From Methanobacteriota archaeon (GTDB taxonomy: Archaea > Thermoplasmatota > Poseidoniia > Poseidoniales > Thalassarchaeaceae), in assembly GCA_004195615.1 (NCBI GenBank), contig PSPW01000001.1:82881-146880 (forward strand): DNA of 64,000 nucleotides. The letters run 5' to 3'. A model generated the notes under the pieces. The model was not told where the DNA came from, ran no database searches, and worked only from the letters and a program-made list of their open reading frames with translations. Each line of letters begins with the position of its first letter. Within the stretch, counting starts at the first letter, position 1. Shown piece after piece: positions 3,905 to 38,268 of the stretch. The position numbers were made by a program, and so were the translations under genes.

Positions 3905-4225
3905 ATGACATATTCCGCAATATTCGGTACCGATCTGACGTACTTACTCATAAGGGCAGAGTGCGAAATAGGATTCATGAGGCGAAGGTATCTCAACCCA
4001 CTTGTTCTGATACTGCTCCCACCGATAGGACTGATTATGGGAGCGGCCCTTGCCCAGCCACTCTCAATCATTATCTCACAAAGTGGGATTACTGATAATT
4101 ATGAAAACGGTGGGATATTTGGATTTCAAATCGGTCTATTTTGCGCAATGATTATCGTAGCGATAAGGCTTCGTAATGATATGAAGAAGACTGACAATTG
4201 GATGCGAGAATCTCATGACGTCTGA
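3905..4225 (+). CDS. Small hypothetical membrane protein
   Basis: Two predicted TM segments and lower GC than the flanking DNA. No homology recognised. Confidence 0.3.
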   Translation: MTYSAIFGTDLTYLLIRAECEIGFMRRRYLNPLVLILLPPIGLIMGAALAQPLSIIISQSGITDNYENGGIFGFQIGLFCAMIIVAIRLRNDMKKTDNWMRESHDV

Positions 4226-4250
4226 AGAGATGCCAAACTAAGGTGATAAT

Positions 4251-5312
4251 TTGTCCGATGACGATTCTTTGTTTCAACTAGGCTTGAACACATTTGGCGA
4301 TGTGTCAAGAGATGACAATGGTCAATTCGAAGAACACCATGTAGTCTTGAGGAACGTCGTTGAGGAAGCGATTCTAGCAGATAGATTGGGCTTAGATTTC
4401 TTCGGAGTTGGTGAGCACCACCGAGATGACTTCGCGATTACTGCTCCGGAAGTAGTATTGGGGGCAATAGCCAGTAGGACTGATCGAATCCACCTAGGTA
4501 CTGCCGTAACAGTACTGAACTCCGACGATCCGATAAGAGTGTACGAGAGATTTGCAACACTGGATGCACTCTCTAATGGACGGGCCGAGGTAATTCTCGG
4601 ACGTGGCTCCTTCACCGAGTCATTCCCCCTATTCGGATATAGAATGGAGGATTATGAACGGCTCTTTGAGGAGAAATTGGAAATATTCTCTCTACTGAGA
4701 AATGAAGATGAGTTTGATTGGGAAGGGACGATTCGTTCTCCTCTACACAAGCAAAGAGTATACCCCCAGACAGAACGCGGAAGTCTTCGCTCGTGGATAG
4801 GGGTTGGGGGAAGTCCAGAATCAGTTGTACGTGCCGCCCGACATGGACTGCCCCTTTGCATCGCCATCATTGGAGGGCAACCCTCAAGATTCACCCCCTT
4901 TGTAGATCTCTACCACGAAGCACTTGCCCAGTTTGAACAACCGAATCAACCCATTTCTGTACACAGCCCAGGACATATTGCTGAGACTGACGAGCAGGCT
5001 AAGGAGGAAATATGGCCTCATTATAGGGAGATGTTCGGGAGAATCGGGCGAGAAAGAGGCTGGCCACCAGTAACTTACGAGCAATTTGAGCTTGGAGTAG
5101 GCCCCCATGGTTCGATGTATGTAGGATCGCCAGAAACGGTGGCAGAGAAAATCATTAGAAACTCAAAATTGCTTCGGGCTTCTAGATTCGATTTGAAGTA
5201 TAGTAACGGTGGAATGCCCCATGACCAATTGATGAGTTCCATTGAGTTGTATGCGAAGGAAGTGGCCCCAATAGTTAGAGAGGAGATAACAGATTTCACA
5301 CCTATCCATTGA
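4251..5312 (+). CDS. LLM-class (luciferase-like) flavin/F420-dependent oxidoreductase
   Basis: TIM-barrel LLM signatures: LGLDFFGVGEHH, TAVTVLN and ILGRGS. Confidence 0.8.
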   Translation: MSDDDSLFQLGLNTFGDVSRDDNGQFEEHHVVLRNVVEEAILADRLGLDFFGVGEHHRDDFAITAPEVVLGAIASRTDRIHLGTAVTVLNSDDPIRVYERFATLDALSNGRAEVILGRGSFTESFPLFGYRMEDYERLFEEKLEIFSLLRNEDEFDWEGTIRSPLHKQRVYPQTERGSLRSWIGVGGSPESVVRAARHGLPLCIAIIGGQPSRFTPFVDLYHEALAQFEQPNQPISVHSPGHIAETDEQAKEEIWPHYREMFGRIGRERGWPPVTYEQFELGVGPHGSMYVGSPETVAEKIIRNSKLLRASRFDLKYSNGGMPHDQLMSSIELYAKEVAPIVREEITDFTPIH

Positions 5313-6268
5313 ACATAGGGTACCCTCGTGTATGTGGACGTAATGGTGAGGTTTGCTTACAACAATTATTGAATGCCCCCTCAGCATGCTTACTTCGGGT
5401 GAAGGGGATGGAATGGAAAGACGCGCCGCCCCCCGAGGATAACGAGCAAGCCATTATTGAGAACTTGGAGTCATGGGATGACTTGGCAAATGTACATGCG
5501 CAGGGTAGCGGAGCTAAATTCTATCGAATCGATCAGTGGCTCGACGGTGAGTCAAAATTAGCACCTTGGGAAATCGAAGAGGTGGGTCCGGTATCTGGAT
5601 TGAATTTACTCCACCTGCAGTGTCACATTGGTACAGATACACTGTCATGGTTCCGCGAAGGGGCAAAGGTGACTGGTCTCGATTTCTCCTCTAATGCAGT
5701 AATTGAGGCAGAGAGGTTCGCCAAACTTCTCGGTGCAGAGGACGCCCGATTTTTTGTCGGTAAAATTACAGATGCACTCGAGACTCTTGGAGGGGAAGAG
5801 TTCGATATCGTCTACACCGGAAGAGGTGCCATTTGTTGGCTCCCCAATATAGATGAGTGGGCATCAATATGCAGTAAACTAGTGAAGGAGGGAGGATTTC
5901 TCTACCTCGAGGAGTCGACTCCAATGTTCAATTCTCTGGAACCGATGGAGTTCGGTAGCCATTCACTGTTCGGAGTAAAGTACGACCTATTCAACACAGA
6001 CCCGGTTTCAGAAATGGGTCAAGGAAGCTACGCGGACCCGGATTTGCCAGGAATAAGAACGACTCACACTTGGGAGTATACGTATGGATCAATTATCAAC
6101 GCTCTCGTAGGCAACGGTTTTCGTATTGATTTCCTAAATGAACGAGATGAAACGTTTTTCAATCCGCATCCAGAAAAGTTCGTGGAATCCAGACCAAACT
6201 ACTGGACTTTTAAGGATGGTGAAATGAAATTTCCAGTCTCATTCACCCTAAAGGCAACTAGGTTGTAA
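5309..6268 (+). CDS. Class I SAM-dependent methyltransferase
   Basis: Motif I-like VTGLDFSSNAVIEAERFA plus the acidic post-I region (FDIVYTG). The real start may be the internal ATG at 5408 (MEWKD...). Confidence 0.65.
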   Translation: MNIGYPRVCGRNGEVCLQQLLNAPSACLLRVKGMEWKDAPPPEDNEQAIIENLESWDDLANVHAQGSGAKFYRIDQWLDGESKLAPWEIEEVGPVSGLNLLHLQCHIGTDTLSWFREGAKVTGLDFSSNAVIEAERFAKLLGAEDARFFVGKITDALETLGGEEFDIVYTGRGAICWLPNIDEWASICSKLVKEGGFLYLEESTPMFNSLEPMEFGSHSLFGVKYDLFNTDPVSEMGQGSYADPDLPGIRTTHTWEYTYGSIINALVGNGFRIDFLNERDETFFNPHPEKFVESRPNYWTFKDGEMKFPVSFTLKATRL

Positions 6269-6287
6269 TCGAGGGTTTATCTACAAA

Positions 6288-6494
6288 TCAATTTACATTG
6301 AATTCAGAATCTAGTTTGGAAATCGTAGCCTCAATATCCTCTATAATTTCAAAAAGTGAATTATCCCTAGTGTACACCAAGAGTTTGCTTCCGCCACCGG
6401 TCTCCTGATATGCACATATTGCATCCAACCTTATTCTCGTCATCCCACCCTCAGTCATTGCCTTGATCCAGCTTGTCATCGGGCCGGTCGCCAC
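6288..6494 (-). CDS. Hypothetical small protein (68 aa)
   Basis: The ORF sits in the low-GC island. Composition looks protein-like, but I see no motif. Confidence 0.3.
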   Translation of the reverse strand: MATGPMTSWIKAMTEGGMTRIRLDAICAYQETGGGSKLLVYTRDNSLFEIIEDIEATISKLDSEFNVN

Positions 6495-6591
6495 GTGAAT
6501 GGGATTTAGTCTATGCCCCTTTGATAACCCTATGATTCAAGATGAACTAAAGGGTAGGAAAGTGGATGCTACACTCTGAGAAACCTCGGAG

Positions 6592-7005
6592 TTATTTCGG
6601 CTTGAAGCGCTCCACGGCGGCGAACCCAGCGAAGAATCCAAGGCCAAAGGTTCCCATCTCTGATATTGATACTAGGATTGACTGGCTCTGAGCAGTGGCA
6701 TCGATGCCGATGTCAACCATCCCCAATGTAATCCTCTCCCAGTCAACAGCTACTATTCCTCTCGACTCGAGCCACTTTAACAGGGCGAATTCAATCAGGA
6801 TGAACCACTTCAGCAAATTGGTCGCCATTTTGAAGACCAGCCCGGTGACTGCCCCCACGATGAGCCCCTGGAAGGCAGCAACACCCACCTCGCCAAGGAA
6901 ACCTTCCCATAGGTCCGAGGCCGCAGACACGCTCCCCGAGAGAGGCAGCGCATTATAGGTCCCTTCTATGACAAAGGCCGCCCATGGTAGTGTAATGAGA
7001 GCCAT
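6592..7005 (-). CDS. Hypothetical membrane protein
   Basis: Three to four hydrophobic segments. Located in the low-GC island. Confidence 0.4.
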   Translation of the reverse strand: MALITLPWAAFVIEGTYNALPLSGSVSAASDLWEGFLGEVGVAAFQGLIVGAVTGLVFKMATNLLKWFILIEFALLKWLESRGIVAVDWERITLGMVDIGIDATAQSQSILVSISEMGTFGLGFFAGFAAVERFKPK

Positions 7006-7057
7006 GGATCGTTACATTTCTAATGTGACCATAATAGAACTAGGGGCATTCGATTTT

Positions 7058-8350
7058 CTATGACTCTTTACGGCGTTTATTATTGCTATAATTTCTATTC
7101 CTTCTTCTAGATCGATTTGTCTTATCAGTTTGATTTTTATTTGTCTTAAAGGTATGATTCGTTTGTTTATTTACCTTTATTTTACCTGGTTTTTGATTAG
7201 GTTTTGGTATCGCCTTTGCGAAATGGTATCGATGATCGTCAATAACGGGAATTGTTTTTCCTATGAGTCTTTGAATACCGACCAAATAACCGCTTTCACT
7301 ATCATCACAAAATGCAAACGCCACTCCGCTCTTCCCAGCACGTGCAGTCCTCCCGATTCTGTGAACATAACTTTCAGGCTCATTGGGCAAGTCATAGTTG
7401 AAGACATGTGTAACCCCGTCTACATCGATTCCTCGGCTAGCGATATCTGTAGCAACTAGTAGCGGCACGCGTCCCTGTTTGAATCTTTCAAGTGCCTTTG
7501 TCCGTGCACCTTGGCTCTTATTGCCGTGTATTGCTAAAGCATTGATTCCTGCCTTATCGAGTTGTTTTACTAATCTGTTGGCACCATGTTTTGTACGTGT
7601 AAAGATTATGCCCCTCTTTACCTTATTTTCTTTAACAATATCAACAATTAGTTTACGTTTGTCTTCCTTCCGAACAAATAAAACTGATTGTTCTATTTTA
7701 TCAACAGTTATTTCCTTAGGGCTTAAATCTATCATTTCGGCATTATTGAGGAAAGATTTAGCCAAATCTGCTATCGAAGAAGGCATTGTCGCGCTAAAAA
7801 GGAGATTTTGTCTTCTCTTAGGTAGTATCGCCAATATTTTTTTGATATCCCTGATGAATCCCATATCGAGCATTCTATCTGCTTCATCTAATACGAAAAA
7901 TTCGATGTAATTGAGATCTATGTGTCCTTGTTGCATTAGGTCTAGAAGTCTTCCAGGCGTAGCAACCAAGACATCGATACCTCTCCTCAATGATTGAACC
8001 TGTGGCTTCTGACTGACTCCTCCGAAAATGACCTTGTGCCGAATCTCAATAAATTGGCTGTAAACAGAGAATCGCTGATCGATTTGCGCTGCTAATTCTC
8101 TTGTTGGAGAAAGTATAAGCGCACTAATATGACGTTTCTTAGGAGTATCCCTTTGCAATAATTTTTGTAATATTGGCAAGGCGAATGCAGCGGTCTTTCC
8201 TGTTCCCGTTTGTGCCACTCCGAGCAAATCCTTACCATCTAGCAACAGAGGAATACCCATAGCTTGTACCGGTGTTGGGTGAGTGTATCCTTCAAGATTA
8301 ATTGCACGAAGTAATTTATTGGATAACCCCAAAGATTCGAAATTTGACAT
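7058..8350 (-). CDS. DEAD-box ATP-dependent RNA helicase with a Lys/Asn/Arg-rich C-terminal tail
   Basis: Q-motif region (F..LGL...GYTHPTPVQ) and motif I (AQTGTGKTAAF). DEAD, SAT and HRIGRTARAG motifs are all present. The second ATG (8350) has an AGAGGG SD-like element 8 nt upstream. Gene GC is about 40%, against about 58% in the flanks. Confidence 0.9.
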   Translation of the reverse strand: MSNFESLGLSNKLLRAINLEGYTHPTPVQAMGIPLLLDGKDLLGVAQTGTGKTAAFALPILQKLLQRDTPKKRHISALILSPTRELAAQIDQRFSVYSQFIEIRHKVIFGGVSQKPQVQSLRRGIDVLVATPGRLLDLMQQGHIDLNYIEFFVLDEADRMLDMGFIRDIKKILAILPKRRQNLLFSATMPSSIADLAKSFLNNAEMIDLSPKEITVDKIEQSVLFVRKEDKRKLIVDIVKENKVKRGIIFTRTKHGANRLVKQLDKAGINALAIHGNKSQGARTKALERFKQGRVPLLVATDIASRGIDVDGVTHVFNYDLPNEPESYVHRIGRTARAGKSGVAFAFCDDSESGYLVGIQRLIGKTIPVIDDHRYHFAKAIPKPNQKPGKIKVNKQTNHTFKTNKNQTDKTNRSRRRNRNYSNNKRRKES

Positions 8351-8607
8351 CGACAACCCTCTCATTAAACAAGACGAAATGCAGTATCACGCAGGAGCCA
8401 GTACAACCATTCGACTCATGCATCTCCTAAAATCCCACCGTGGCACCAATAGGTATCCATCGACCTAATTCCTACTCCTCACCATAATGCTTGCATCACC
8501 TTAGGTAGCGTGATGAATGCCTACGAAAATCTCTATTGGTTTGTTGCGCATTGATGTGAAATCGGTGCTACCAAGCCAGTAATAACTTCGTCACTTAACG
8601 GTATACC

Positions 8608-9573
8608 GTGGAGTTCTACACTGGAGCATGCATGGTTTGCATCGGCGTCTATCTTTTTTGGGAACCAAGCTATGGAAGAAAGCCTACTCCGTCATCGGAA
8701 TCGGCGACGTCTAGAGCAAAGGATTCTGGGGCACTAAGTCAGACAGTACGTCAGGTGGCACGGATGACGATTAGGCCAACCTTCCTCCCCACCAGAGGGC
8801 TTCGAATCTACAGGGCCTTCGCATTTATCGGAGCTTTTTTTGGTTTCGTGGCCTCTAAATTGGTAATTTCTAATCCTTACATTTCTAACGAAGTCTCTCC
8901 GAGTGTTATTCTGTGGATATGTGTGGCGATTGGCTCATTCCTTGGTTACATTTTACCTCGAGTTGCTGAGAACTACATAGTGGTCCTAGGTCCTCCGGTC
9001 ACAGTAGTATTGACTTACGAATATCTGTTGTACGAGAGAGGTATCGATTTGCTAGAATTAGTTGTGGAAATCCCCTTTATTCCGGAAATCTCCCATTCTC
9101 TTCTTTCCGGTTTCTTTCTGGTCTCGACAACTTTCCTCACTTTGACCTTCAGGATGTACTTGAGACAGGCCATCCCAATCCTCATGTCTGGGTTATTGTC
9201 TGGGGGGCTGATTGGTAATGGAGTCTCCATAATCCAATCTAGGTCATTTCCACTATCTTCAGCAGAAATTGAATTTCATATCTCCGCCATAGTCGCAATG
9301 TGCAGCATCACTTCCCAGATTTACGTCAGATATTATCGGAGGGAGAGGGGTATCAAGAAGCAGAAGGCGGAAGACCGAGAAAGGCGACTAGTCAAGAGGT
9401 CGGGGGACGTTGTGATATTGAGATGCCCTTCTTGCAACAAAGAGGCCCAGCACGTAGTTGTGACTAGGAAAGTGACGGAGAGGGGAGTGGAGTTGATGGT
9501 GAATTGTAGGTGGTTGAATCAATTTGACGAGGTGTGCAATTTCCACCACACGGTGATTGAATCGACTGGCTGA
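8608..9573 (+). CDS. Hypothetical polytopic membrane protein with a C-terminal C4-type zinc-ribbon
   Basis: Five to six TM segments, then a basic linker (RRERGIKKQKAEDRERR) and CPSC...(20 aa)...CRW...C..H. The table start is GTG, so the real start may be an internal ATG. Confidence 0.45.
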   Translation: MEFYTGACMVCIGVYLFWEPSYGRKPTPSSESATSRAKDSGALSQTVRQVARMTIRPTFLPTRGLRIYRAFAFIGAFFGFVASKLVISNPYISNEVSPSVILWICVAIGSFLGYILPRVAENYIVVLGPPVTVVLTYEYLLYERGIDLLELVVEIPFIPEISHSLLSGFFLVSTTFLTLTFRMYLRQAIPILMSGLLSGGLIGNGVSIIQSRSFPLSSAEIEFHISAIVAMCSITSQIYVRYYRRERGIKKQKAEDRERRLVKRSGDVVILRCPSCNKEAQHVVVTRKVTERGVELMVNCRWLNQFDEVCNFHHTVIESTG

Positions 9574-9595
9574 ATGGGCGTGGTCGCAATGCCGT

Positions 9596-10348
9596 TCAGA
9601 ATACACCGGAGTTCTGCTGCATCCTAGCGTACCATACGGACACGCCGAGGTGGCTCTCTACAATGTCGAACCCATTGAGGTCCTGCATCGAACGGAGGAT
9701 CCCAAAGTTGGCGAAATCTGCGCCGTTCGGCTCTTTGCCGCCAAAGAAGTCACCCCGTATTCCCTCGGACATGAGGTCCAGTTGGTGCTTGAGGTTCTCG
9801 CGTGGAGGGAGTTCGAACATTTTCGCTCGGCTCTTCCCCACCATGCGCATGATGAATCCTCCTAACCACTTGTTAATCAGGCGACTTCCGAACGAAAATT
9901 TGTCGACTCTGGTGACGTAGTCGAGGGCTTGGACAGAGGTCCTGTACGAGGTGTATATCACTGCTACGATTGACTTCCCTAGGACGTTGTTTGAGAAATC
10001 CATCCACTTGTCCTGCTCCAGGTCCTCTCCCATTCGCGGGAATGCCCCGGTGCCTTTCGAGTCGATGTAGTGTAGGATGTGGTTCGAGTCGTTCACCTGA
10101 GTTCCGTCGACATCGACGAACACGGGCACCTTCCCCCAATCGGACCACTTCAGTTGCGTCTTGAAGGTGGGGTCGACCTCGACCTTAGAGAACTCAATCC
10201 CCCTAGATCCCAGTAGTGCCTTAATCTTGAAGCAGAACGGGCAGGTCTCGAAGCAATACATCGTCGGGAGGCCGCCAACAACCCTCTCCGGGACCAGTTC
10301 ATCCTGCACACCCGAGGGTGTCTCCTTCGCTTCGGGGTCGCTTGTCAT
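9596..10348 (-). CDS. Glutaredoxin-2-like / GST-fold thiol transferase (N-terminal CPFC active site)
   Basis: MYCFETCPFCFKIKALL resembles the GrxB N-terminus (YIYDHCPFCVKAR). The length fits a GST fold and the start is ATG. Confidence 0.6.
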   Translation of the reverse strand: MTSDPEAKETPSGVQDELVPERVVGGLPTMYCFETCPFCFKIKALLGSRGIEFSKVEVDPTFKTQLKWSDWGKVPVFVDVDGTQVNDSNHILHYIDSKGTGAFPRMGEDLEQDKWMDFSNNVLGKSIVAVIYTSYRTSVQALDYVTRVDKFSFGSRLINKWLGGFIMRMVGKSRAKMFELPPRENLKHQLDLMSEGIRGDFFGGKEPNGADFANFGILRSMQDLNGFDIVESHLGVSVWYARMQQNSGVF

Positions 10349-10580: not shown

Positions 10581-10937
10581 CTAGAAGTCGTTTGCGCGAA
10601 CGGTCTTTCGGCCGTTTGCCTGGGCTCTGGACACTGCGTCGGACACAGCGGACTCTGCTAGAGCGTTCATTGCGCCCATTGCGTCGCCACCGGTGTTGCA
10701 GCCGCGTGCCTTGAAGGCCTCCTTGACCCTGCTAGCTACGACCATACCCGAATCCGAGGTTCCGCTTCCGATGTCGTGCGAGCGGATCGTCTTTCGACCA
10801 TTAGAGCCGCATCTAGCCACAGCTGATGCAACTGCAGCCTCTACTGCTGCGTTCAGAGCGCCTGTGGCGTCTCCAGCGGTGTTGCACCCGCCAGCCTTTA
10901 TTGCTTCCTTCATTTTGCTGTTGTATACCATTGACAT
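10581..10937 (-). CDS. Archaeal histone, tandem double histone-fold (doublet)
   Basis: Two consecutive repeats each align to an HMf-type histone: KEAIKAGGCNTAGDATGALNAAVEAAVASAVARCGSNGRKTIRSHDI and KEAFKARGCNTGGDAMGAMNALAESAVSDAVSRAQANGRKTVRANDF, against ...IKDAGAERVSDDA...EAIKLARHAGRKTIKAEDI. The table ORF extends to 10964; I chose the internal ATG at 10937. Confidence 0.7.
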   Translation of the reverse strand: MSMVYNSKMKEAIKAGGCNTAGDATGALNAAVEAAVASAVARCGSNGRKTIRSHDIGSGTSDSGMVVASRVKEAFKARGCNTGGDAMGAMNALAESAVSDAVSRAQANGRKTVRANDF

Positions 10938-11063
10938 AGCGAGCCGGGCGAGCCAAAGCCCCATTTTGAAGGTTGGGGATGGGTTTCTTTGGCGTTGATG
11001 GGCGATTTGAGGCGATTTGACCGAAAATTAAGGGTATCAATGACCCCTCCGAAGTTCAGTAAC

Positions 11064-18495: not shown

Positions 18496-18555
18496 CGGCC
18501 CTTGAGGTCATTTCGTCAAGGTAGGCTTTTATCCGCCTCTCTAGGGCAACGGACG

Positions 18556-21500
18556 ATGAGGCGCACAGCAGTATTACTAGTAATACTGATGCTGACAGCG
18601 ATTCCTGCTTCGATGAGTCAGGATTTCCGACTGGCCGCCATCCCATCCCAGATGAGCACTGGATCGGGGGCGAACTGCCCCAACCAGACCCATTCGGGGG
18701 ATGCCTTCTACGCAGACGGATCGACTGGAAACGACTCTTGGAATGGAACCCAGGACTGCCCGACCGCCTCCATCCAGGCCGCTGTCGACCTGGCTTCCGA
18801 GAACGGCACGGTGATCGTCAGAGAGGGTGTCTACCACGAGGTCGTCACGTTGGACCAGCAGGGAATGAGGCTGAGGGTAGCCGATGGAGAGAGAGTCATC
18901 CTAGATGGCAGCCGAAGCGTTACTGGCAATCTCGGGGGCTCATGGTCGGTCCACGACTCCTCGTCGACTGAGGGGATCGTCTGGAAGGCGGACCTCACCC
19001 AGGACGCATGGCAGCTCTTCGTGGACTACGAGGAGGAGATGCCAGCGAGGTGGCCCAATGCGAACTTCTCCGACGGGACCGCCCTGGACGACGACGAGTA
19101 CTGGGCCCACGGAAGCGTGAACGTTGATGACTACGAGACGAACGAGACCGCAGCCTGCAACGAGGGGATGTCAAAGTACCAGAGTGGCAACAAGTACTAC
19201 TGCCTCAACTACCTCAATGGCGAGCTGGAGGACGACAACTCATCCTACGCAGGGCACAACGGCCTAATCGACAGCGGCGTGAACGCTACTGACGCGATTG
19301 CCGTCCTGAACATCGGCTCCTTCAGGACGTGGAGCCGAAACGTGACTTCACACAACACCAGCAACGGCTCCTTCAACTTCGAAGAGGTACCCAGTGACGA
19401 GTGGAAGTACAAGCACCACATGTACTTCCTGACACAGAAGCTCGAGCTGCTCGACGTGCCTGGCGAGTGGTTCTTCGACCACGAGTCGTCGGCCAACACC
19501 GTCTACTACATGCCGAGGGACGGCAGCGACCCCAACGACCTAGACATCAGGATGAAGACCCAGCCGTACGCCATACTGTGCTCGGACGACGATGGGGTGG
19601 TGGTCGAGGGCTTCGACTACTTCGCCACCACCTTCAGCCTCGATGACTGCGACGGCTCGGAGATCAGGAACTCCACTCTACTCTACCCCAGCACCTCGAA
19701 GAGGTCTCTCGGCCATGCGGGCGAGGACATGGACAACCGATACGTCTCCAGATTCGATGACTGCATCAGCTGCCTGGTGGACAGCTGTGACTTCCTTTAC
19801 ACCGATGGGGCGGCCTTCGAGGCCCACGGAGGGGCGTCAAGCTCCCAGAACAACACCATCAACAACTCCTACTTCTACCACATCGACTGGTCAGGTTCCG
19901 ACCAAAAGAGCCTGATGACGACCATCATGATGGACGGCACGACCAACCGGTTCACCAACAACACGATGCACAGGACGGGGACCTCCGCGACGATCAGGAT
20001 CGGCAACGCCCCCCAAATCATGTTCAACGAGATCTACGACACCGCCCACATCCAGTCAGACGGGACGGTCGTCCAGATGATGCAGGCAGAGCAGGAGAAC
20101 GCGACAGTCGCCTACAACTGGATCCACGACGTGCCCAAGTACGGCATCAGGATGGACGGGCCGTTCGGCGGTACTAACTCAGGCAGGAACGCGAGCGTGC
20201 ACCACAACGTGCTGTGGAACGTGAACGGCGCCATTGTTGTGAAGGGCGACTACCACAACGTGAGTAACAACACGGTCCTCCTGGGATCCGAGGGCGACAG
20301 GAACCACATCATAGTCCTCTACGACTCGACCGGGGGCAACGAGAACTCGACGATCATGTCCAACGCGGCAAACTCCATCAGCGGTCATCGGACAAACTCG
20401 AACCTCACCGACCCGATTCCCGTCAACTCGACGGCCATCGGCAACAACTGGAACGGATACGACCCCCAGAACACAGGTGAGAACGTCTCCGGAATGCTGG
20501 TCTCCCCCGAGACGAGCGACTTCAGGCCCGTGTTCGGGTCGGAGATAGGCCAGATGGGAGCGGGGGCGTACTCCAGCACCCAGAACGCTACCGTCCCAGC
20601 CGACCCGTCCTCCTTCGACCCATCGACCTACTACTGGCTGCCCGGGATCAAGAGGAACGTCTCGAGTCCCTATCAGAGGACGTCCTTCGACCTACCATGC
20701 CCGTCTGGCCAATATCGATCCGCCGCAGGAGCCTCCTGCGAAGCAGCCCCTGCCGGTCAGCACGTCCCACTCTGGGGGTCAAACTCTCCGACCGAGTGCA
20801 CGACTGGGACCTGGCAGGACGAGACAGGACAGTCCAGCTGCATCGAGGCCGATGCGGGTAACTACGTCGGCACCAACGGGTCGATGATTCAGATACAGTG
20901 CTCCACAGGTTCATGGCAGGACCAGCCCGGTCAGGCGAGCTGCATGAACGCGAGCGCCGGCTACTACGTGGACACCAACGAGTCGGCTACGCAGAACCAA
21001 TGTTCTCCGGGGACATTCCAGCCCCTCGCAGGGCAGACATCCTGCATAGAAGCGGATGCTGGTCACTACGTCGCCCAAGCACCTCTTGAATTCACCTCAA
21101 TCTCTGGAAAATGGGGGCACACTTGTGGAATTATGGTGGACGGAACCCTGTATTGCTGGGGGGACGGAGATTCTGGTCAAATCGGTGACGGGGGGCTGGA
21201 TGATCGTAGTTACGCCGTGGCGGTTGACTTGCCTCCGGGACGAGCCGCGATCTCGGTTTCAGCGGGTTACGCTCACTCGTGCGCCGTATTGGACAACCTC
21301 TCCGCATACTGCTGGGGGATGGGCGGATGGGGGCAGATGGGGCATGGTTCTTGGGATTCCAATCTTGTCCCGGGCCCAGTTTCACTCCCCTCGAACAAAA
21401 CTGTTAGCTCCGTAGTTGCGGGATACGACCACTCCTGCGCATTGATGAACGACTCCTCCCTATACTGTTGGGGAAAGAACGCTGTAGGCCAACTAGGCAA

Positions 21501-24500
21501 CGGTGATGCGACAGTAACCCACTCCTTCAGCCCAATCTTGATCATTGGTAGTTCAGTTGAGTTCGTATCAGCTGGGAATCAGCAAACCTGTGCAATATTG
21601 TCCAATGGGACAGCGTACTGCTGGGGAAGGAACGACTATGGGTCATTGGGCAATATCGAGCAGGGATGGAATGACGACTCGTACGAACCCTTGCAGGTTG
21701 ATGTCCCCCCTGGCAGGGAGGTCACGGTCATTTCTGCAGGAACATCATTACACAGTTGCGCGACTCTGGACAATGGTTCCGCATATTGTTGGGGTTACGG
21801 GAACGATGGGCAACTAGGAAACGCCTCTAGTTACGATACCACCAACTGTGCCGGATACTGGTGCACGTCGGGGCCTACTCCGGTTCAAGTCCTGTTGCCC
21901 CAAGGAAGCAACGCCACCTCGATCAAAACAGGGGGCTCTCACTCTTGTGCAACGCTGTCAAATTATTCCCTTTACTGCTGGGGGCACAATTGGTATGGAG
22001 AGGTCGGTGACGGAACTCAATCATCCAGACTGGTTCCCGTGCTAGCCTCTATCGTTCCCGAAGGAGGAATCTCAGACTTCTCTGCCGGGGGTGGCTATTC
22101 TTGTGTGGTGACTCATGATGACTCTGCATTCTGCTGGGGTGATGGTTCTCTTATGGGAAATGGTAGGCTCGGGATTGGTGAAATCAACGCAACCAATCAT
22201 CTCAATCTAGATCCATTGTTGGAAGTTCGGGGTCCTTATGTTCCCTTCATTAGCCAGACAGCCTGCTCCCTTGGTTCCTACCAGTCATCCACCGGCCAAT
22301 CATCTTGTGATGAAGCAGATGCGGGCCACTTTGTGAGCACGAACGGGTCGGCCACACAGACGCCCTGCGAACTGGGCACCTGGAACAACATGACCGGTCA
22401 AGTCTCCTGCACGAACGCGAGCGTCGGGCACTACGTCGATACCAACGGGTCCGCGACCCAGACCCCCTGCGGACTGGGCACTTGGAACAACATGACCGGT
22501 CAAGTCTCCTGCACGAACGCGAGCGTCGGGCACTACGTCGATACTAACGGGTCCGCGACCCAGACCCCCTGCGGACTGGGCACTTGGAACAACATGACCG
22601 GTCAGTCCAGCTGCACGAACGCGAGTGCCGGCTACTACGTGGACACGAATGGGTCCACCATGCAGACCCCCTGTGACGCGGGGACGTACAACCCGAGTAA
22701 CGGGTCCAACTCGTCTGCAGACTGCCTGACCACTCCTGTGGGCAACTACTCCGGAGCCGGAGCGGCCTCGCCGACACAGTGCTCACCAGGTACGTGGCAG
22801 AACCAGACGGGGCAGTCGAGTTGCATGAACGCCAGTGCTGGCCACTACGTGGACACCAACGGGTCGACTACGCAGACTCCCTGTGCTCCGGGCACATGGA
22901 ACAGCATAACCGGGCAGTCCAGCTGCATCCCGGCATCCCCCGGATACTACGTGGACACCAACGGATCTACCTCCCAAACTCCCTGCGATGCAGGGACGTA
23001 CAACCCCAACTCATCCTCCAACTCCTCCACAGACTGCCTGACCACTCCCGCTGGCAACTACTCCGGAGCCGGAGCGGCCTCGCCGACACAGTGCTCACCA
23101 GGTACGTGGCAGAACCAGACAGGGCAGTCCAGCTGCATCGATGCCAATCCCGGGCACTACGCATCGGGATACGGGAATACAAATGAGACCCAATGCGGGC
23201 TGGGCACTTGGACAGACCAGACGGGACAGAGCTCCTGCGCACCGGCATCCCCCGGATACTACGTGGACTCTAACGGGTCGACGACCCAGACCCCCTGTGA
23301 GTTGGGGACGTACAACCCTAATTCGGGGTCGAGCGATCCATCTGATTGCGTCCAAGCCAGTCCCGGCTACTACGTCGACCAGGAGGGGCAATCGAGCCAG
23401 ACCCCATGTTCCGCTGGCTCGTACAACAACATCACTGGGTCCACCACGTCGTCGGACTGCATCGATGCACAACCAGGATACTACATCGCCTATCCCGGAT
23501 CAACCTCACAGAGCCCCTGCCAGTTGGGGGAGTTCCAGCCATCGCCCGGTCAATCCTCGTGCATCGATGCCGATCCGGGCAACTATGTGGATTCGCTTGC
23601 CTCCACCAGCCAGACGGCCTGCTCCCCTGGCTCGTACCAGCCCAACTACGCGCAGACAGAATGCCTATCTGCAAATGTGGGGCACTACGTCGAGACCTCT
23701 GGATCTGCCAGCGAAACCCCCTGTGATGCGGGGACGTACAACACATTCACCGGATCGGTAGTCTCATCGGACTGCCTAGAAGCGGATCCGGGTTACTTCA
23801 CGGCCTCCTCGGGCTCATCCTCGCAGGTCGCTTGCTCGCCTGGTTCGTACCAGCCCAATCCGGGAGCGACCAGTTGCATCTACGCTACGCCGGGACATTT
23901 CGTCGACCAAGCAGCGGCGACTTCGGAGCAGAGCTGCCATCTCGGAGAGTACCAGCCCAGCACCGCTAGGCAGAGCTGCATGACTGCAGACATAGGGTAC
24001 TACGTGGACTCGATCGGCTCTTCCGGCCAGACGAAGTGTCTGCCAGGCAAGTACAACCCCGACGAGGGGGCCATGACGGTCGATGCATGCATAGATGCCG
24101 CGCCCGGATTCCACGTCCCGACGACCGCAACTGGTGTGAGCAGCCAGACTCCATGCTCGGCTGGGACTTACCAAGCCGCCTATGGGATGACGGAATGCAC
24201 CGAAGCCGAGGCGGGCTACTACGTAGACACGACTGAGGCCTCCTCTCCTACTCCCTGCTCCGCCGGTTCCTATCAGCCAAGCACCGGACAAGTGAGCTGC
24301 CTTGACGCGGGTGATGGGCACTACGTTGCCGGGACGGGGCAGTCCGAACACACGCCGTGTCCGATTGGGACCTACCAGCCCGACGTGGGCAAAATAATCT
24401 GCGAGGACGCGGATCCGGGTTACTTCGTTGGTGAGGAGGGCTCCACCACGCAGACTGGTTGCCATGCTGGGACCTACCAGCCCGGCCAAGCACAGGAAAG

Positions 24501-25992
24501 CTGCATCTCTACAGAGCCGGGGTATTACGTGACTGGGACGAAGGCCACCGAGAAGACCCCCTGCTCCCCAGGGAAATGGCAGAACCAGACCGGGATGACC
24601 ACCTGCAACAGCGCAGAGCCCGGATTCCATGCACCAAACCCGGGAGCGGATGATCAGACTCCCTGTCCGAGTGGGACGTTCCAGTCAGAGTTCGATAGTA
24701 TCGAGTGCGAGAGCGCCCAACCGGGATACGTCGTCAGCCTCGATGGCATGACGGTTTCGAGCCCGTGTCCCACAGGATCCTACCAGTCAGCAGGTGGTCA
24801 GACCAGTTGCACTGAGACGTCTCCGGGGTACTACGTGGACTCCCTTGGTTCCACCGAGCAGTTGTCATGCCAACCAGGGACATGGCAAGACCTCGGGGGC
24901 AAGTCTGGATGCCAGGACGCGCAACCTGGTTACTACGTCGATACCGAGGCTTCGATTGAACAGTCTATCTGCTTAGAGGGGACATACCAGCCGGAAACCG
25001 GCCAATCGGCATGCATAGTTGCACCCACTGGATTCTTCGTGGAGTCCCCGGGCTCATCGGTGCTAACGAAATGCTCCTCGGGACAGCACCAGCCCACCGA
25101 GGGCAGCACTTCCTGCGTGGACAAGCCGGTCAACCCGGTCCTGATAGGGGGTGGAGCTGCCGCCGTTATCATACTACTATTGGCCTCAGTGGTTGGCTTC
25201 AGGGCCTACAAGAGGAAGCAAGATGCGGAATTCGAGGCAATGATGTCAGAGGACCCGGAGGGGGTCGACGCGGAAGACGAGGCTCCCGTGGTAGCGGAGG
25301 AAGCCGAGCCAGTTGACTACAACTCCATGACCGTGCCCCAGCTCAAGGAATTGCTGCAAGAGCGTGACTTGACTGTTGGCGGAGTCAAGACCGAGCTCGT
25401 TTCCAGGCTCGAGGAGGACGATGTGCAGTTGGAGAAGTTCAAGGCGAGGCTTGGGCATGTGGAAGTGGCGGCAGATGTCGTGGAGGAAGATGATGAAGAT
25501 GACCTCCTAGAGGACCTGGAACTCGATGATGACGAGGATGATGAAGATGACCTCCTAGAGGACCTGGAACTCGATGATGACGAGGAGGATATCGATCTAG
25601 ACGAGGAGGATATCGATCTAGATGTTCCTGAGACAACTGAGGAGATTGAGACCACCGAGGTGGAGGGGGAAACCACCGAGGTAAGCGAGGAGATCAGCGA
25701 TGCTGAGTTCGAGGAGTTCGAGGAAGAGGTGACCGATACCCAGGTGGTTGCAGAGGCTCCGGTGGTTGCAGAGGCTCCGGTGGTTGCAGAGGCTCCGGTG
25801 GTTGCAGAGGCTCCGGTTGAGACCAGCGAGGAGATCAGCGATGCTGAGTTCGAGGAGTTCGACGAAGAGGTGGCGGTAGCAGAGACGCCGGTCGGGGCCA
25901 GCGAGGAGATCAGCGATGACGAGTTCGAGGAGTTCGACGAAGAGATCAGTGAGGAAGAGTTCGAGGAGTTCGAGGAGTTCGACGACGAATAG
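18556..25992 (+). CDS. Giant single-pass surface glycoprotein. The order is signal peptide, NxS/T-rich (possibly beta-helix-like) region, 7 RCC1-like repeats, about 30 ephrin-receptor-like Cys repeats, a TM helix, a cytoplasmic SAP motif, and a poly-acidic repeat tail.
   Basis: One ORF spans the whole region. Signal peptide MRRTAVLLVILMLTAIPASMSQ. Dozens of N-x-S/T sequons. Seven repeats of the form YCWG.N..GQLGNG. More than 30 repeats of the form C..G.Y....G...C..C..G.YV. TM helix VLIGGGAAAVIILLLASVVGF followed by YKRK. SAP-like TVPQLKELLQERDLTVGGVKTELVSRLEE. The tail has repeats DDEDDLLEDLELDDDED x2, APVVAE x4 and SEEISDAEFEEFDEE x3. The table start (18502) is TTG; ATG 18556 begins the signal peptide. 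Confidence 0.85.
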   Translation: MRRTAVLLVILMLTAIPASMSQDFRLAAIPSQMSTGSGANCPNQTHSGDAFYADGSTGNDSWNGTQDCPTASIQAAVDLASENGTVIVREGVYHEVVTLDQQGMRLRVADGERVILDGSRSVTGNLGGSWSVHDSSSTEGIVWKADLTQDAWQLFVDYEEEMPARWPNANFSDGTALDDDEYWAHGSVNVDDYETNETAACNEGMSKYQSGNKYYCLNYLNGELEDDNSSYAGHNGLIDSGVNATDAIAVLNIGSFRTWSRNVTSHNTSNGSFNFEEVPSDEWKYKHHMYFLTQKLELLDVPGEWFFDHESSANTVYYMPRDGSDPNDLDIRMKTQPYAILCSDDDGVVVEGFDYFATTFSLDDCDGSEIRNSTLLYPSTSKRSLGHAGEDMDNRYVSRFDDCISCLVDSCDFLYTDGAAFEAHGGASSSQNNTINNSYFYHIDWSGSDQKSLMTTIMMDGTTNRFTNNTMHRTGTSATIRIGNAPQIMFNEIYDTAHIQSDGTVVQMMQAEQENATVAYNWIHDVPKYGIRMDGPFGGTNSGRNASVHHNVLWNVNGAIVVKGDYHNVSNNTVLLGSEGDRNHIIVLYDSTGGNENSTIMSNAANSISGHRTNSNLTDPIPVNSTAIGNNWNGYDPQNTGENVSGMLVSPETSDFRPVFGSEIGQMGAGAYSSTQNATVPADPSSFDPSTYYWLPGIKRNVSSPYQRTSFDLPCPSGQYRSAAGASCEAAPAGQHVPLWGSNSPTECTTGTWQDETGQSSCIEADAGNYVGTNGSMIQIQCSTGSWQDQPGQASCMNASAGYYVDTNESATQNQCSPGTFQPLAGQTSCIEADAGHYVAQAPLEFTSISGKWGHTCGIMVDGTLYCWGDGDSGQIGDGGLDDRSYAVAVDLPPGRAAISVSAGYAHSCAVLDNLSAYCWGMGGWGQMGHGSWDSNLVPGPVSLPSNKTVSSVVAGYDHSCALMNDSSLYCWGKNAVGQLGNGDATVTHSFSPILIIGSSVEFVSAGNQQTCAILSNGTAYCWGRNDYGSLGNIEQGWNDDSYEPLQVDVPPGREVTVISAGTSLHSCATLDNGSAYCWGYGNDGQLGNASSYDTTNCAGYWCTSGPTPVQVLLPQGSNATSIKTGGSHSCATLSNYSLYCWGHNWYGEVGDGTQSSRLVPVLASIVPEGGISDFSAGGGYSCVVTHDDSAFCWGDGSLMGNGRLGIGEINATNHLNLDPLLEVRGPYVPFISQTACSLGSYQSSTGQSSCDEADAGHFVSTNGSATQTPCELGTWNNMTGQVSCTNASVGHYVDTNGSATQTPCGLGTWNNMTGQVSCTNASVGHYVDTNGSATQTPCGLGTWNNMTGQSSCTNASAGYYVDTNGSTMQTPCDAGTYNPSNGSNSSADCLTTPVGNYSGAGAASPTQCSPGTWQNQTGQSSCMNASAGHYVDTNGSTTQTPCAPGTWNSITGQSSCIPASPGYYVDTNGSTSQTPCDAGTYNPNSSSNSSTDCLTTPAGNYSGAGAASPTQCSPGTWQNQTGQSSCIDANPGHYASGYGNTNETQCGLGTWTDQTGQSSCAPASPGYYVDSNGSTTQTPCELGTYNPNSGSSDPSDCVQASPGYYVDQEGQSSQTPCSAGSYNNITGSTTSSDCIDAQPGYYIAYPGSTSQSPCQLGEFQPSPGQSSCIDADPGNYVDSLASTSQTACSPGSYQPNYAQTECLSANVGHYVETSGSASETPCDAGTYNTFTGSVVSSDCLEADPGYFTASSGSSSQVACSPGSYQPNPGATSCIYATPGHFVDQAAATSEQSCHLGEYQPSTARQSCMTADIGYYVDSIGSSGQTKCLPGKYNPDEGAMTVDACIDAAPGFHVPTTATGVSSQTPCSAGTYQAAYGMTECTEAEAGYYVDTTEASSPTPCSAGSYQPSTGQVSCLDAGDGHYVAGTGQSEHTPCPIGTYQPDVGKIICEDADPGYFVGEEGSTTQTGCHAGTYQPGQAQESCISTEPGYYVTGTKATEKTPCSPGKWQNQTGMTTCNSAEPGFHAPNPGADDQTPCPSGTFQSEFDSIECESAQPGYVVSLDGMTVSSPCPTGSYQSAGGQTSCTETSPGYYVDSLGSTEQLSCQPGTWQDLGGKSGCQDAQPGYYVDTEASIEQSICLEGTYQPETGQSACIVAPTGFFVESPGSSVLTKCSSGQHQPTEGSTSCVDKPVNPVLIGGGAAAVIILLLASVVGFRAYKRKQDAEFEAMMSEDPEGVDAEDEAPVVAEEAEPVDYNSMTVPQLKELLQERDLTVGGVKTELVSRLEEDDVQLEKFKARLGHVEVAADVVEEDDEDDLLEDLELDDDEDDEDDLLEDLELDDDEEDIDLDEEDIDLDVPETTEEIETTEVEGETTEVSEEISDAEFEEFEEEVTDTQVVAEAPVVAEAPVVAEAPVVAEAPVETSEEISDAEFEEFDEEVAVAETPVGASEEISDDEFEEFDEEISEEEFEEFEEFDDE
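22381..22686 (+). repeat. Three tandem, near-identical 102-bp (34-aa) in-frame repeats inside the giant surface-protein gene. Copies 2 and 3 differ by about 1 nt.
   Basis: The unit tggaacaacatgaccggtcaagtctcctgcacgaacgcgagcgtcgggcactacgtcgataccaacgggtccgcgacccagaccccctgcggactgggcact recurs at about 22381, 22483 and 22585. A second long copy pair (ggcaactactccggagccggagcggcctcgccgacacagtgctcaccaggtacgtggcagaaccagac) lies about 312 bp apart at about 22741 and 23053. Confidence 0.85.
25480..25989 (+). repeat. In-frame low-complexity acidic repeat block (the C-terminal tail of the giant protein)
   Basis: Short tandem DNA repeats: gatgatgaagatgacctcctagaggacctggaactcgatgatgacgagga x2, gaggatatcgatctagacgag x2, gttgcagaggctccggtg x4, agcgaggagatcagcgatg.tgagttcgaggagttcga x3. 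Confidence 0.8.
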
Positions 25993-30001: not shown

Positions 30002-30986
30002 TTGAGACCTCCAACGAATCGGACTTCGGGTGTAGCTTATGGGTCAGTTCCTCATAGTCCTCTGATCCTTCCCAGAGGTCACCGAGGACTATCCTGCCGT
30101 TGTAACCCCCCTCCTGGTCGAGTGAGATGTAGCCCCTGTTTGTTAGGAACAGGGTGGATACGAATGCGGTGACTTGCGATTCTGTCTTGGTCTCCTGATC
30201 GTCCAGTCCCGCTTGCGAGTTCCTGTTCAGTTCGTCTGCGACCTCTCCGAGTGCCACCGATTCGGATGACTGTGCCCTAGATTTCAGAGCATCCCACGTC
30301 CTCTTCAAGTCTCCTTCGAGATCCTCTACGTGGAAGCTCCCGCTGAATCGTGCCCTTGCCCTGTCGTGTGCCTCCCTCCTCTCCTTGGCTATTCTCTCCC
30401 TGGTCCTCTGCTCCTCGGCAATTCTACTCGCGTCCTTGAGGCCGAGGAGGAGCTCACCGAGGGTGACTGGCCGGCCTTCTTCCCGGTGTATGCGCCCCTC
30501 GAACATCGAAGGTAGAGTCTCGTCGGCTGCTCCGGTCATGACGCCCACTGAGAAGTTGTAGTCAGCGTCATCGAATTCGACCTCCCAGCCGTCATCGAAG
30601 TCCCAATCGACTTCCTCCTCGAAATCCATAGCCCTCTCCTGACGCTCTATCAGGGAGATCGCCTGACCGCGTAGGATGGACCACGCCATCCTGATTATGC
30701 GACCGCACGATGGGAGGTCAATGTTCTCGGCCTTCTCGATTCGCTCGTTGAACATCTCGATGAAACTGGATAGGTCGACGTCCCAGGGGTCCAAGTCGCT
30801 CGATTGGAACATCTGGAACACCAGGGCAACCGAACGGTCGAATGGGTCGATGAGGAATTGATGCTCCGCCTCGTCCAGGGTCGACAGCTCCATCAGCCTG
30901 TCCAGGAATTTACTGGCCTCTAGGTTGGGCTGGCCCTCAAGCAGACGGAGGACAACATCATCCCTCATCTGCTCTCCGAAAATCAC
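29994..30986 (-). CDS. scpA: Segregation and condensation protein A (ScpA kleisin)
   Basis: Placed between smc and scpB on the same strand. Kleisin-like length and acidic composition. GTG start overlapping the smc TAG stop by 1 nt, and an 8-nt overlap with scpB. Confidence 0.75.
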   Translation of the reverse strand: MIFGEQMRDDVVLRLLEGQPNLEASKFLDRLMELSTLDEAEHQFLIDPFDRSVALVFQMFQSSDLDPWDVDLSSFIEMFNERIEKAENIDLPSCGRIIRMAWSILRGQAISLIERQERAMDFEEEVDWDFDDGWEVEFDDADYNFSVGVMTGAADETLPSMFEGRIHREEGRPVTLGELLLGLKDASRIAEEQRTRERIAKERREAHDRARARFSGSFHVEDLEGDLKRTWDALKSRAQSSESVALGEVADELNRNSQAGLDDQETKTESQVTAFVSTLFLTNRGYISLDQEGGYNGRIVLGDLWEGSEDYEELTHKLHPKSDSLEVSNV

Positions 30987-38000: not shown

Positions 38001-38268
38001 CTCCGAACAAGAACACGTGGCCGAAACCCTCCTCATCTAGGATCTCCTTGGTGTGAGTGAACATCTCAACGGCACCGCCTTGGTAGGAGGTGATTGCGAC
38101 TGCGTGTGCGTCCTCCTGGATGGCCGCACGTGCAACCTCGTCGGCACCCCTGTCATGCCCAAGGTGGATTACCTCGCAACCCTGGCTCTGGAGAATCCTC
38201 CGGAAGATTCCTATGGCCGCGTCGTGGCCATCGAAAATCGCGGCTGCGGTGATAATGCGAATGGGCAT
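35032..38268 (-). CDS. icmF: Fused B12-dependent acyl-CoA mutase, IcmF-like: B12-binding domain, MeaB-like G-protein, then mutase substrate-binding barrel
   Basis: N-terminal B12 motif AAAIFDGHDAAIGIF..GCEVIHLG (the DxHxxG motif). P-loop VIGITGTGGAGKSSL (MeaB/ArgK type). C-terminal methylmalonyl-CoA-mutase-like catalytic domain (YTGGVFPFRREDE...). The ATG at 38268 gives the MPIRII N-terminus. Confidence 0.85.
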   Translation of the reverse strand: MPIRIITAAAIFDGHDAAIGIFRRILQSQGCEVIHLGHDRGADEVARAAIQEDAHAVAITSYQGGAVEMFTHTKEILDEEGFGHVFLFGGGGGTILPHEIEQLRRNGISRIYSPDDGRDLGLVGMVRDAMNQASEIDLLERSRFDSISGPVDADDHGMVSLLLTMAENSHPDEFYDTLSKARSRNSESECPVIGITGTGGAGKSSLMDEVMLRIRRDNPDARVALLATDPTRKKTGGALLGDRIRMNSLSDHKLFMRSFASRDSGREIAECVDRAVETCKAVGFDLVIVETSGIGQGDDAITEVADISIYVTTREYGAPSQLEKLAALDFADIVVLNKFDRPGAEDALTEIRKQFLRNREAFDENPESMPVVPTIASQFADAGVDRLWEMMTVQLNEKFGTDFSASEPRLGPDGLPNRDTPIPPKRQGYLAEVASTVRDYHKRSEDVAKSVRQVQQLEAAAKLLESSSKRDTNQDLLDEANEIRSSIPEAAWASLNEFDSKSEAYRSGQASYTVREKEISVKTTHETLSGTRVPRVALPTTQDWGDKLLWIRKENAPGAFPYTGGVFPFRREDELPVRMFAGEGSAERTNKRYHFLSKDQSFNRLSVAFDSPSLYGNDPQERLDIFGKVCESGVSISTVDEMDRLFVGFDLCAPNTSVSMTINGNYWWHLAAFFRVAIRQQTRKFVEENGRDPSENESEEISAYALSTVRGTVQADQLKEAMGQNTLVFNLDTALRMMGDVAEFYVNNGVRNHYFVSISGYHIDEAGANPITQAALTLSNGLTYVELFKARGLDPDKFLRNFSWFFSNGMDPEYAVIGRVSRRIWAIAMRDLYGVEERGQKLKYHIQSSGRSLHSQEFTWNDYRTTLQALYALADNANSLHTNSRDEAFGTPTEDTVRDAVAIQLILTKEYGWLRNENPLQGSFVADFLTDEVEEKVLRIFEEMHSRGGVLGALEVNYQRNRIQDEGMLYEHRKHTGETPIVGVNTFTDPDSSTPSAEEFDIDVTRSDESEKMMVINRNREFKEAHSAESEECLSRLKQVAREGGNLFEVMMHIVEHCSVGQVTQALFESGGKFRRNM

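Follow-up and report, generated by a model that had tools for sequence, protein, structure and literature searches.

A candidate face-to-face-type histone doublet encoded by a single gene of Thalassarchaeaceae archaea

The gene and its conservation

We analysed a 64,000-nucleotide stretch of DNA (the window) from an archaeon of the Thalassarchaeaceae (Poseidoniales; Marine Group II, MGII), which spans positions 82,881 to 146,880 of contig PSPW01000001.1 in assembly GCA_004195615.1, and studied a small gene on its minus strand that is predicted to encode two histone folds in one polypeptide chain. The open reading frame (ORF) extends over 10581..10964 on this strand and specifies 127 amino acids in its longest form. 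Sequence comparison makes it most likely that the coding sequence is 10581..10937, with translation starting from the ATG at 10937, and that the product is a protein of 118 amino acids with a basic computed isoelectric point (pI) of 9.45. Residues are numbered below in this 118-residue form unless mentioned otherwise.

10581..10937, minus strand: most likely coding sequence of the 118-amino-acid basic histone-fold doublet (stop codon 10581..10583), placed from the ORF list, the orthologue starts and the substitution pattern
10938..10964, minus strand: MGLWLARLA, the nine codons in frame ahead of the likely start, probably part of a promoter or untranslated leader

We compared the 5′ region by alignment to three related contigs (L001, L003 and L004). 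Within the upstream codons MGLWLARLA, five of the six differences from L001 were nonsynonymous, while just downstream of the ATG at 10937 the next four differences were all synonymous. The orthologues called by NCBI begin at MSMVYNSK, and distant homologues begin directly ahead of helix α1. Because of the nonsynonymous excess and the orthologue starts at MSMVYNSK, the first nine codons are probably untranslated.

Among 5.8 billion proteins, a word-indexed search found 38 homologues with E ≤ 1e-3; 25 are 75–97% identical to the query, and the organism names attached to these homologues were only Candidatus Thalassarchaeaceae or Poseidoniales. At least 20 MGII genomes were found to carry the gene at 82–97% identity in a scan of the GTDB species representatives, and in the alignment of related contigs the differences in the coding body were synonymous. 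The ORF is a genuine conserved gene and not a chance ORF. Its orthologues are labelled 'hypothetical protein' by NCBI and 'histone H3/H4' by IMG.

The protein consists of two consecutive units of ∼55 residues that share 32 of 54 positions (59%). Unit 1 has the loop (L1) sequence GGCNTAGD and ends in NGRKTIRSHDI; the corresponding segments of unit 2 are RGCNTGGD and NGRKTVRANDF. Both loops and the RKT...D motif of each half are as described in an earlier, first-pass annotation of the same DNA. A search of all six-frame ORFs of the window with the family profile (hmmsearch) found no second histone gene.

Predicted folds and family placement

AlphaFold2 was run on the single chain with a 19-sequence alignment, and the secondary structure of the model was assigned by DSSP. 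The model (mean pLDDT, predicted local distance difference test, 95.4; predicted template modelling score, pTM, 0.85) contains the succession α1 (10 residues)–L1–α2 (22 residues)–L2–α3 (3–4 residues) twice, and DSSP places L1/L2 β-bridges at N19-T20/T50-I51 and at N81-T82/T112-V113. The helix-strand-helix-strand-helix order with L1/L2 β-bridges that characterizes the histone-fold superfamily is, hence, found two times in the predicted structure.

10770..10937, minus strand: predicted histone fold 1, residues 1–56 (α1 6–15, L1 GGCNTAGD, α2 24–45, L2 NGRKTI, α3 53–56)
10746..10769, minus strand: linker GSGTSDSG, residues 57–64, connecting the truncated α3 of fold 1 to α1 of fold 2
10584..10745, minus strand: predicted histone fold 2, residues 65–118 (α1 68–77, L1 RGCNTGGD, α2 86–107, L2 NGRKTV, α3 115–117)

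The linker varies in sequence and length among homologues. Besides the DSSP assignment, fold 1 is delimited by a match of HBb (Bd0055; 8FVX, 8CMP) to residues 11–65 of the 127-residue form. Fold 2 ends at the Phe one position after the clamp Asp, and HLp of Leptospira perolatii (9QT0-2) likewise terminates in ...TDF.

In Foldseek searches of the PDB, the best whole-chain matches were single-chain doublets, namely HMk of Methanopyrus kandleri (1f1e, E 8e-5), engineered scH2A-H2B chimeras and Melbournevirus doublets. The DUF1931 protein 1wwi of T. thermophilus was also matched (E 0.03, TMq 0.63), and viral histone doublets headed the list from BFVD. When the halves were superposed separately, the root-mean-square deviation (rmsd) was 1.1 Å on HTkC of Thermococcus kodakarensis (9f2c; TMt 0.88, 36% identity) and 1.9 Å on HLp (9qt0/9qt1; 41% identity). 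At the level of the model, the protein is shown to be two histone folds in one chain. The tandem double histone fold proposed in the first-pass annotation is borne out by the AlphaFold2 model and the doublet matches.

Sequence searches placed the protein in the neighbourhood of the α3-truncated and FtF (face-to-face) histones. The single sequence found HLp (9qt0) at E 1e-7 and the profile found it at 7e-14; in the profile search HBb followed at 1e-10 and HTkC at 1.8e-10, and HMfA came far behind at 1.4e-3. HBb matched fold 1 at E 6.5e-4, and HLp matched fold 2 across the whole half at E 4e-8.

In the α3-truncated histones defined by Schwab et al. 2024, α3 has 3–4 residues and α2 is 4–5 residues shorter than in nucleosomal histones. 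The AlphaFold2/DSSP assignment shows these proportions in each half, with α3 at 53–56 and 115–117 and a 22-residue α2. Within this group, histones of the face-to-face (FtF) type carry the motif RxTxxxxD together with an interface Arg and Asn, which in D4GZE0 of H. volcanii are R41, N45, R47, T49 and D54 (PMC11390915). We observed the FtF signature, R-x3-N-x-R-K-T-x4-D, with unchanged spacing in both halves: R42/N46/R48/T50/D55 in fold 1 and R104/N108/R110/T112/D117 in fold 2. Its columns are invariant or nearly so in the family alignment A2.

We also counted the interface residues in 183 proteins, 90 of them doublets and 93 singlets, which ranked best in an exhaustive profile search with 1697 matches at E ≤ 1e-3. 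The Arg was present in 67 of 90 first halves, 65 of 90 second halves and 92 of 93 singlets, and the Asn in 68, 65 and 92, respectively. Fold 2 stops one position past the clamp Asp (...NDF) and so has a free C-terminus, while fold 1 continues into the linker.

From the signature residues and the predicted structure, we concluded that two FtF-type α3-truncated folds are fused here into one pseudodimer, which is neither an HMf-like doublet nor an Aq_328-type DUF1931 protein. The first-pass annotation had called the folds HMf-like. Nucleosomal histones of the HMf type have an α3 of ∼10 residues, a four-helix bundle and an L1 'sprocket' Arg (HMfB R19); we rejected this type on the lengths of α3 and α2, on the ranking of matches, in which HLp, HBb and HTkC stand well ahead of HMfA, and on the Asn at the L1 Arg position. 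Membership in the Aq_328-type DUF1931 group was rejected as the solved members (Aq_328 1R4V; 1WWI) were not detected at E ≤ 10, PF09123 was unmatched and the signature residues are kept. The protein does not fall into the class of dimers of the HBb type, which is confined to bacteria, having the interface Arg and Asn in both halves and an archaeal MGII host. Identity with the 'Poseidoniia double', or acidic quadruplet, was rejected on the length of 118 residues, the pI of 9.45 and the lack of an extra domain.

DNA binding, assembly and the L1 cysteines

The reported DNA contacts of HTkC are K7, S8, K9, K11, R22, V23, R51, K52 and T53, and those of HLp are S14, K15, K17, K21, T27, G29, T56 and T57. 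These contacts map to the conserved residues S7 K8 K10 and S69 R70 K72, T20 and T82, and R48 K49 T50 and R110 K111 T112 of the window protein. It is shown by the alignment that both halves retain the putative DNA contacts and the L2 clamp (the S-K-x-K that opens α1, the L1 Thr, R-K-T and R...D), and likewise the residues corresponding to the FtF dimer-dimer interface, Arg42/Arg104 and Asn46/Asn108. Judged by these residues, the protein most likely binds DNA.

Taking the solved relatives as a guide, we lean, with reserve, towards the view that the protein is a small basic chromatin protein of the Thalassarchaeaceae built as a fused FtF-type pseudodimer. The single chain would form what is normally a histone homodimer, with the eight-residue linker joining the folds. 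The pseudodimer would bind the DNA backbone non-specifically via its α1/L1/L2 face, as HLp and HTkC do, and two doublets may associate through their α2-C/L2/α3 surfaces and so close a torus that corresponds to the FtF tetramer. In HTkC, a bridge links R45 to the opposing dimer's C-terminal carboxylate, and the R45A mutation converts the tetramer into a dimer. A torus of doublets would have C2 instead of D2 symmetry and two of these Arg-to-carboxylate salt bridges instead of four, and ∼60 bp of DNA might wrap around it.

Several points weigh against this model. Curated histone models score below their cut-offs, PF00808 (Pfam) at 18.4–18.7 bits against 21.4 and NF043032 (NCBIfam archaea_histone) at 26.7 against 50, and therefore support for the histone assignment comes from the predicted structure and from sequence matches in the PDB. 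The check by histone hidden Markov models suggested in the first-pass annotation thus failed on thresholds, while the matches to histone sequences in the PDB and the predicted fold upheld the assignment. PF00808 was matched by 10 of the 19 relatives at E < 0.01. The torus would be an extrapolation from single-fold FtF histones. Since fold 1 lacks a free C-terminus and the linker exits on the dimer-dimer surface, one of the interfaces could be weakened or blocked by the fusion. In this protein Asn stands in place of the L1 arginine through which HTkC (R22) and HMfB touch DNA. MC1 and Alba have been reported in MGII genomes (PMC7613761, PMC4153887), and these could be the main MGII nucleoid proteins instead. 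Finally, we found no chromatin-related genes in the neighbourhood.

A possible obstruction of this kind leads to the main rival of the C2 torus, in which the fusion occupies or occludes one dimer-dimer surface, no FtF torus forms, and the pseudodimer acts as a monomer, coating or bending DNA in the manner of HBb. HBb is among the top sequence matches both by profile and with fold 1, and it has the full RKT motif in common with the window protein, as well as M-N-T in L1. The FtF family lacks a strongly conserved Lys in RxT, and the RKT found here resembles that of the bacterial dimers. Moreover, many other α3 doublets carry an HBb-like L2 (e.g. AKKDGRKTVMERD) without the FtF Arg and Asn. However, bacterial dimers are defined by the absence of these interface residues, both of which are conserved in both halves of the window protein, and among solved structures the halves are matched best by HLp and HTkC, which are tetramers. 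We regard an HBb-like monomer as unlikely.

Less probable by our reckoning, indeed improbable, is a histone-fold protein without a role on DNA, as has been proposed for Aq_328-type DUF1931 proteins and the Poseidoniales acidic 'quadruplet'; such a protein might be a protein-protein scaffold. The single-chain pseudodimer architecture is common to DUF1931, as the Foldseek match to 1wwi illustrates, PF09123 was touched by 4 of the 19 relatives at E < 0.01, and the lack of nearby chromatin genes would suit such a role. Against it, DUF1931 pseudodimers lack the DNA-binding signature residues that are all kept in both halves here, the protein is basic, and Aq_328 and 1wwi escape detection by sequence even at the permissive threshold used above.

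The three cysteines of the protein lie in the L1 loops of both folds and in α2 of fold 1.

10884..10886, minus strand: codon of Cys18 (C27 of the 127-residue form) in L1 of fold 1, from the sequence; invariant in alignment A2
10698..10700, minus strand: codon of Cys80 (C89 of the 127-residue form) in L1 of fold 2; L, A, H, M or Y instead in distant doublets
10809..10811, minus strand: codon of Cys43 (C52 of the 127-residue form) in the C-terminal part of fold 1 α2, adjoining the interface Arg42

The cysteine of the fold 1 loop (C27 in the longer numbering) is conserved at ≥90% in alignment A1, and no close relative lacks the Cys of the second half. Orthologues preserve the CNT signature, and the comparison indicates that the motif is genuine and not a sequencing error. 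HMMER aligned C-N-T to M21-R22-V23 of HTkC, to F25-M26-T27 of HLp and to M-N-T of HBb. In this alignment the Cys is the residue that precedes the L1 arginine position and the Asn sits at the arginine position itself; the first-pass annotation had placed the Cys where the DNA-pointing Arg normally lies, one residue too far. The L1 Thr is a likely backbone contact to DNA.

At the Cys site the commonest residues among the 183 relatives, a sample biased towards Cys by the query profile, were C44 L17 M12 F6 V5 I2 in the first halves of the 90 doublets, C31 L18 M14 F7 H5 A4 in their second halves and C36 M21 V11 L10 Y9 F5 in the 93 singlets. This exchange with bulky apolar residues, together with the occurrence of Cys in single-fold relatives, indicates an apolar packing position and not a metal ligand or redox switch. 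At the C43 position Ala predominates (A 60/90 and C 24/90 in first halves; A 75/93 in singlets). We expect that the three cysteines occupy apolar or small core-facing positions and would have no dedicated redox or metal role.

The first-pass annotation had taken the paired cysteines as a possible basis of redox- or metal-dependent DNA binding or cross-linking. Some observations agree with this: the fold 1 L1 Cys is found in all aligned homologues, besides the fold 2 L1 Cys of all close relatives; C43 co-occurs with the fold 2 L1 Cys in 22 of the 24 sequences that carry it; and the FtF torus would place two L1/L2 β-bridge sites of opposing dimers side by side (the A-sites of HLp), so that proximity between units is possible. 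Cysteine is, moreover, under-represented in archaeal histones generally (PMC13260811). The tolerance of L, M, F, V, I and Y at the L1 site in both doublets and singlets speaks otherwise, as does the M or F found there in all three solved relatives, where the site lies outside the reported DNA contacts. The protein also lacks the His/Cys cluster typical of metal sites.

From the general geometry of the histone fold, one would expect the L1 loops of a pseudodimer to be at its two opposite ends. If this holds here, an intramolecular pair of the L1 cysteines is implausible. By the same geometry L2 of fold 1, near which C43 lies, would pair with L1 of fold 2; a coupled pair C43+C80 was nevertheless rejected, as the co-occurrence is limited to one closely related clade and is not a feature of singlets (both Cys in 2 of 11). 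A redox- or metal-dependent role of the L1 cysteines is, in our judgement, the least probable of the readings and very improbable.

Distribution, surroundings and comparison with named systems

Doublets had been regarded in the first-pass annotation as restricted to a few archaeal lineages. We found α3 doublets of 36–47% identity, with or without the Cys, also in metagenome-assembled genomes (MAGs) labelled Woesearchaeota/Nanoarchaeota (DPANN), Peribacteria/Peregrinibacteria, Bdellovibrionales, Kofleriaceae and others, so this restriction does not hold for the α3 type. Some of them have an HBb-like instead of an FtF-like L2, and some carry N-terminal extensions. The doublets from MAGs labelled Candidatus Peribacteria/Peregrinibacteria are those of loci L023, L027, L034, L035, L039–L041 and L045, among them one on a contig of 971 kb. 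By the MAG labels, these suggest that fused doublets with full RKT/RD signatures occur in bacteria of the candidate phyla radiation.

The halves within one protein (median 56%, up to 87% identity) are usually more alike than same-position halves across lineages, a pattern that suggests repeated fusion or concerted evolution of the doublets. A viral origin was rejected, as only four weak relatives were found in IMG/VR.

Some relatives differ in domain architecture. P0071 (268 residues) has a Cys-rich N-terminal CxxC...CxxC ZZ-like domain followed by an α3 doublet; ZZ histones have been described with a single fold. P0037 and P0038 are single-fold proteins of 72–73 residues with a Lys/Arg-rich N-terminal tail and the L1 sequence GGCNTAGDA; each half of the window protein shares ∼58% identity with them. 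FtF histones with tails are, by earlier descriptions, typical of viruses and bacteria.

Borrel et al. 2014 and Hocher et al. 2022 reported that a Thermoplasmata-related clade including MG-II lacks or has lost histones (PMC7613761, PMC4153887). Schwab et al. 2024 described 'Poseidoniia' double histones to which a further, degenerate double fold is added at the C-terminus (PMC11390915). According to Laursen and Luger 2026, wherever the Poseidoniales 'acidic quadruplets' occur no other histone gene accompanies them, and DNA binding by these proteins is open to doubt (PMC13260811). The absence of the present protein from such surveys may be because it scores below standard histone-model thresholds. 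Laursen and Luger applied a PF00808 threshold of E = 0.1 over 11 million proteins (PMC13260811), which by our own estimate the window protein would miss. A fused FtF-type doublet was not described in the literature searched, a scope that excludes the 'Undefined' and 'Face-to-face' lists of Schwab et al. It is possible, though we hold it doubtful, that fused FtF-type doublets are an unrecognised class of DNA-wrapping histones that arose repeatedly in MGII, DPANN and candidate-phyla bacteria and serve as the principal histone of MGII; there the cysteine trio, which is specific to the lineage and lies close to the L1/L2 site and the interface, could add redox sensitivity.

The gene is monocistronic and is divergent from a cluster of formyltransferase, short-chain dehydrogenase/reductase (SDR) and luciferase-like oxidoreductase genes that is syntenic in relatives; a GST/glutaredoxin-like gene is a further neighbour. 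Functional linkage to the neighbours was rejected: they include no chromatin-related gene, and relatives share the gene order on one side only. Two features flank the coding sequence.

10963..10976, minus strand: conserved CCAACCTTCAAAAT block, ∼27–30 nt upstream of the ATG at 10937, invariant in the window, L001, L003 and L004
10484..10530, minus strand: hairpin with a 19-bp stem, ∼50 nt past the histone stop codon

The sequence further upstream of the CCAACCTTCAAAAT block carries indels among the same four sequences. From its sequence and position, the block may be a B recognition element (BRE)/TATA-like promoter element of a nearly leaderless transcript. The 116-nt segment 10470–10585 that contains the hairpin folds as RNA at −37.1 kcal/mol (z −3.86; none of 200 shuffles as stable), and the hairpin may be a terminator or otherwise mark the 3′ end.

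Between the histone and formyltransferase genes, at 11001..11051, lies a 10-nt tandem direct repeat (tcaaatcgcc twice on the minus strand); relatives have a different duplicated motif at this position. A conserved block of ∼30 nt with a TTATTTT/TAATTTT core adjoins the repeat and is probably the promoter of the divergent formyltransferase gene. At ∼4000..10000 the GC content of the window is 0.43–0.47 as compared with 0.55–0.63 elsewhere, and synteny with related MGII contigs breaks there. Those contigs have AspRS and GCD14 beside the histone gene, whereas the window has the GST/glutaredoxin-like gene, an unannotated membrane/Zn-ribbon-like ORF (8608..9573) and a DEAD-box helicase. This region is possibly a variable island. 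Elsewhere in the window, a tRNA at 53352..53477 (plus strand) scored 58.7 bits across 126 nt with Rfam, which implies an intron; ARAGORN reported zero tRNAs anywhere in the window. Very large ORFs are present at 18502..25992 (plus strand, 2496 amino acids), 30986..34891 (minus strand, 1301 amino acids) and 35032..38352 (minus strand, 1106 amino acids).

MGII archaea are among the most abundant planktonic archaea, yet they are uncultured and their chromatin is essentially uncharacterised. A basic, conserved doublet that has every DNA-binding and FtF assembly residue is a concrete candidate for a DNA-packaging histone of this group. If the model is true, fusion would convert the D2 torus of FtF histones into a dimer of doublets that has C2 symmetry and whose two interfaces are not equivalent, and the fused pair would be a natural experiment on torus assembly in which only half of the Arg-to-carboxylate bridges can form. 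The origin of the doublet also bears on the evolution of asymmetric histone pairs.

Among the named systems, HLp and HTkC share with each half the truncated α3, the short α2, the R-x3-N-x-R-x-T-x4-D pattern and the S-K-x-K start of α1, at 36–41% identity per half and an rmsd of 1.1–1.9 Å, and with fold 2 the C-terminus one residue after the Asp. They differ in being single folds of 55–65 residues that form homodimers and D2 tetramers, whereas the window protein is fused, has one free C-terminal carboxylate per pseudodimer and has halves that can diverge (59% identical). From HTkC it differs further in the Asn at the place of R22. HBb has the α3-truncated fold, the full RKT and an M-N-T equivalent to C-N-T in L1, but is a single fold without the FtF Arg and Asn, both of which the window protein has in both halves.

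The remaining systems resemble it in architecture. DUF1931 proteins also consist of two folds in a short chain with no other domain and have weak structural similarity to the window protein; they lack the DNA-binding and assembly signature, and no sequence match between the two was obtained at E ≤ 10. HMk and the haloarchaeal 'Halo double' or acidic doublets are likewise single-chain pseudodimers, but with a full-length α3, ∼143–154 residues and an acidic character (median pI 4.7), in contrast to the 118-residue, basic, α3-truncated chain described here. The 'Poseidoniia double' (PMC11390915), which equals the 'acidic quadruplet' of cluster 5 (PMC13260811), comes from the same host order and has multiple histone folds in a single chain. 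It has ∼262 residues, a pI of 5.2 and a degenerate C-terminal double fold, misses most histone signatures beyond the first fold and perhaps does not bind DNA, whereas the window protein is encoded by a separate gene, is basic and carries the full signatures.

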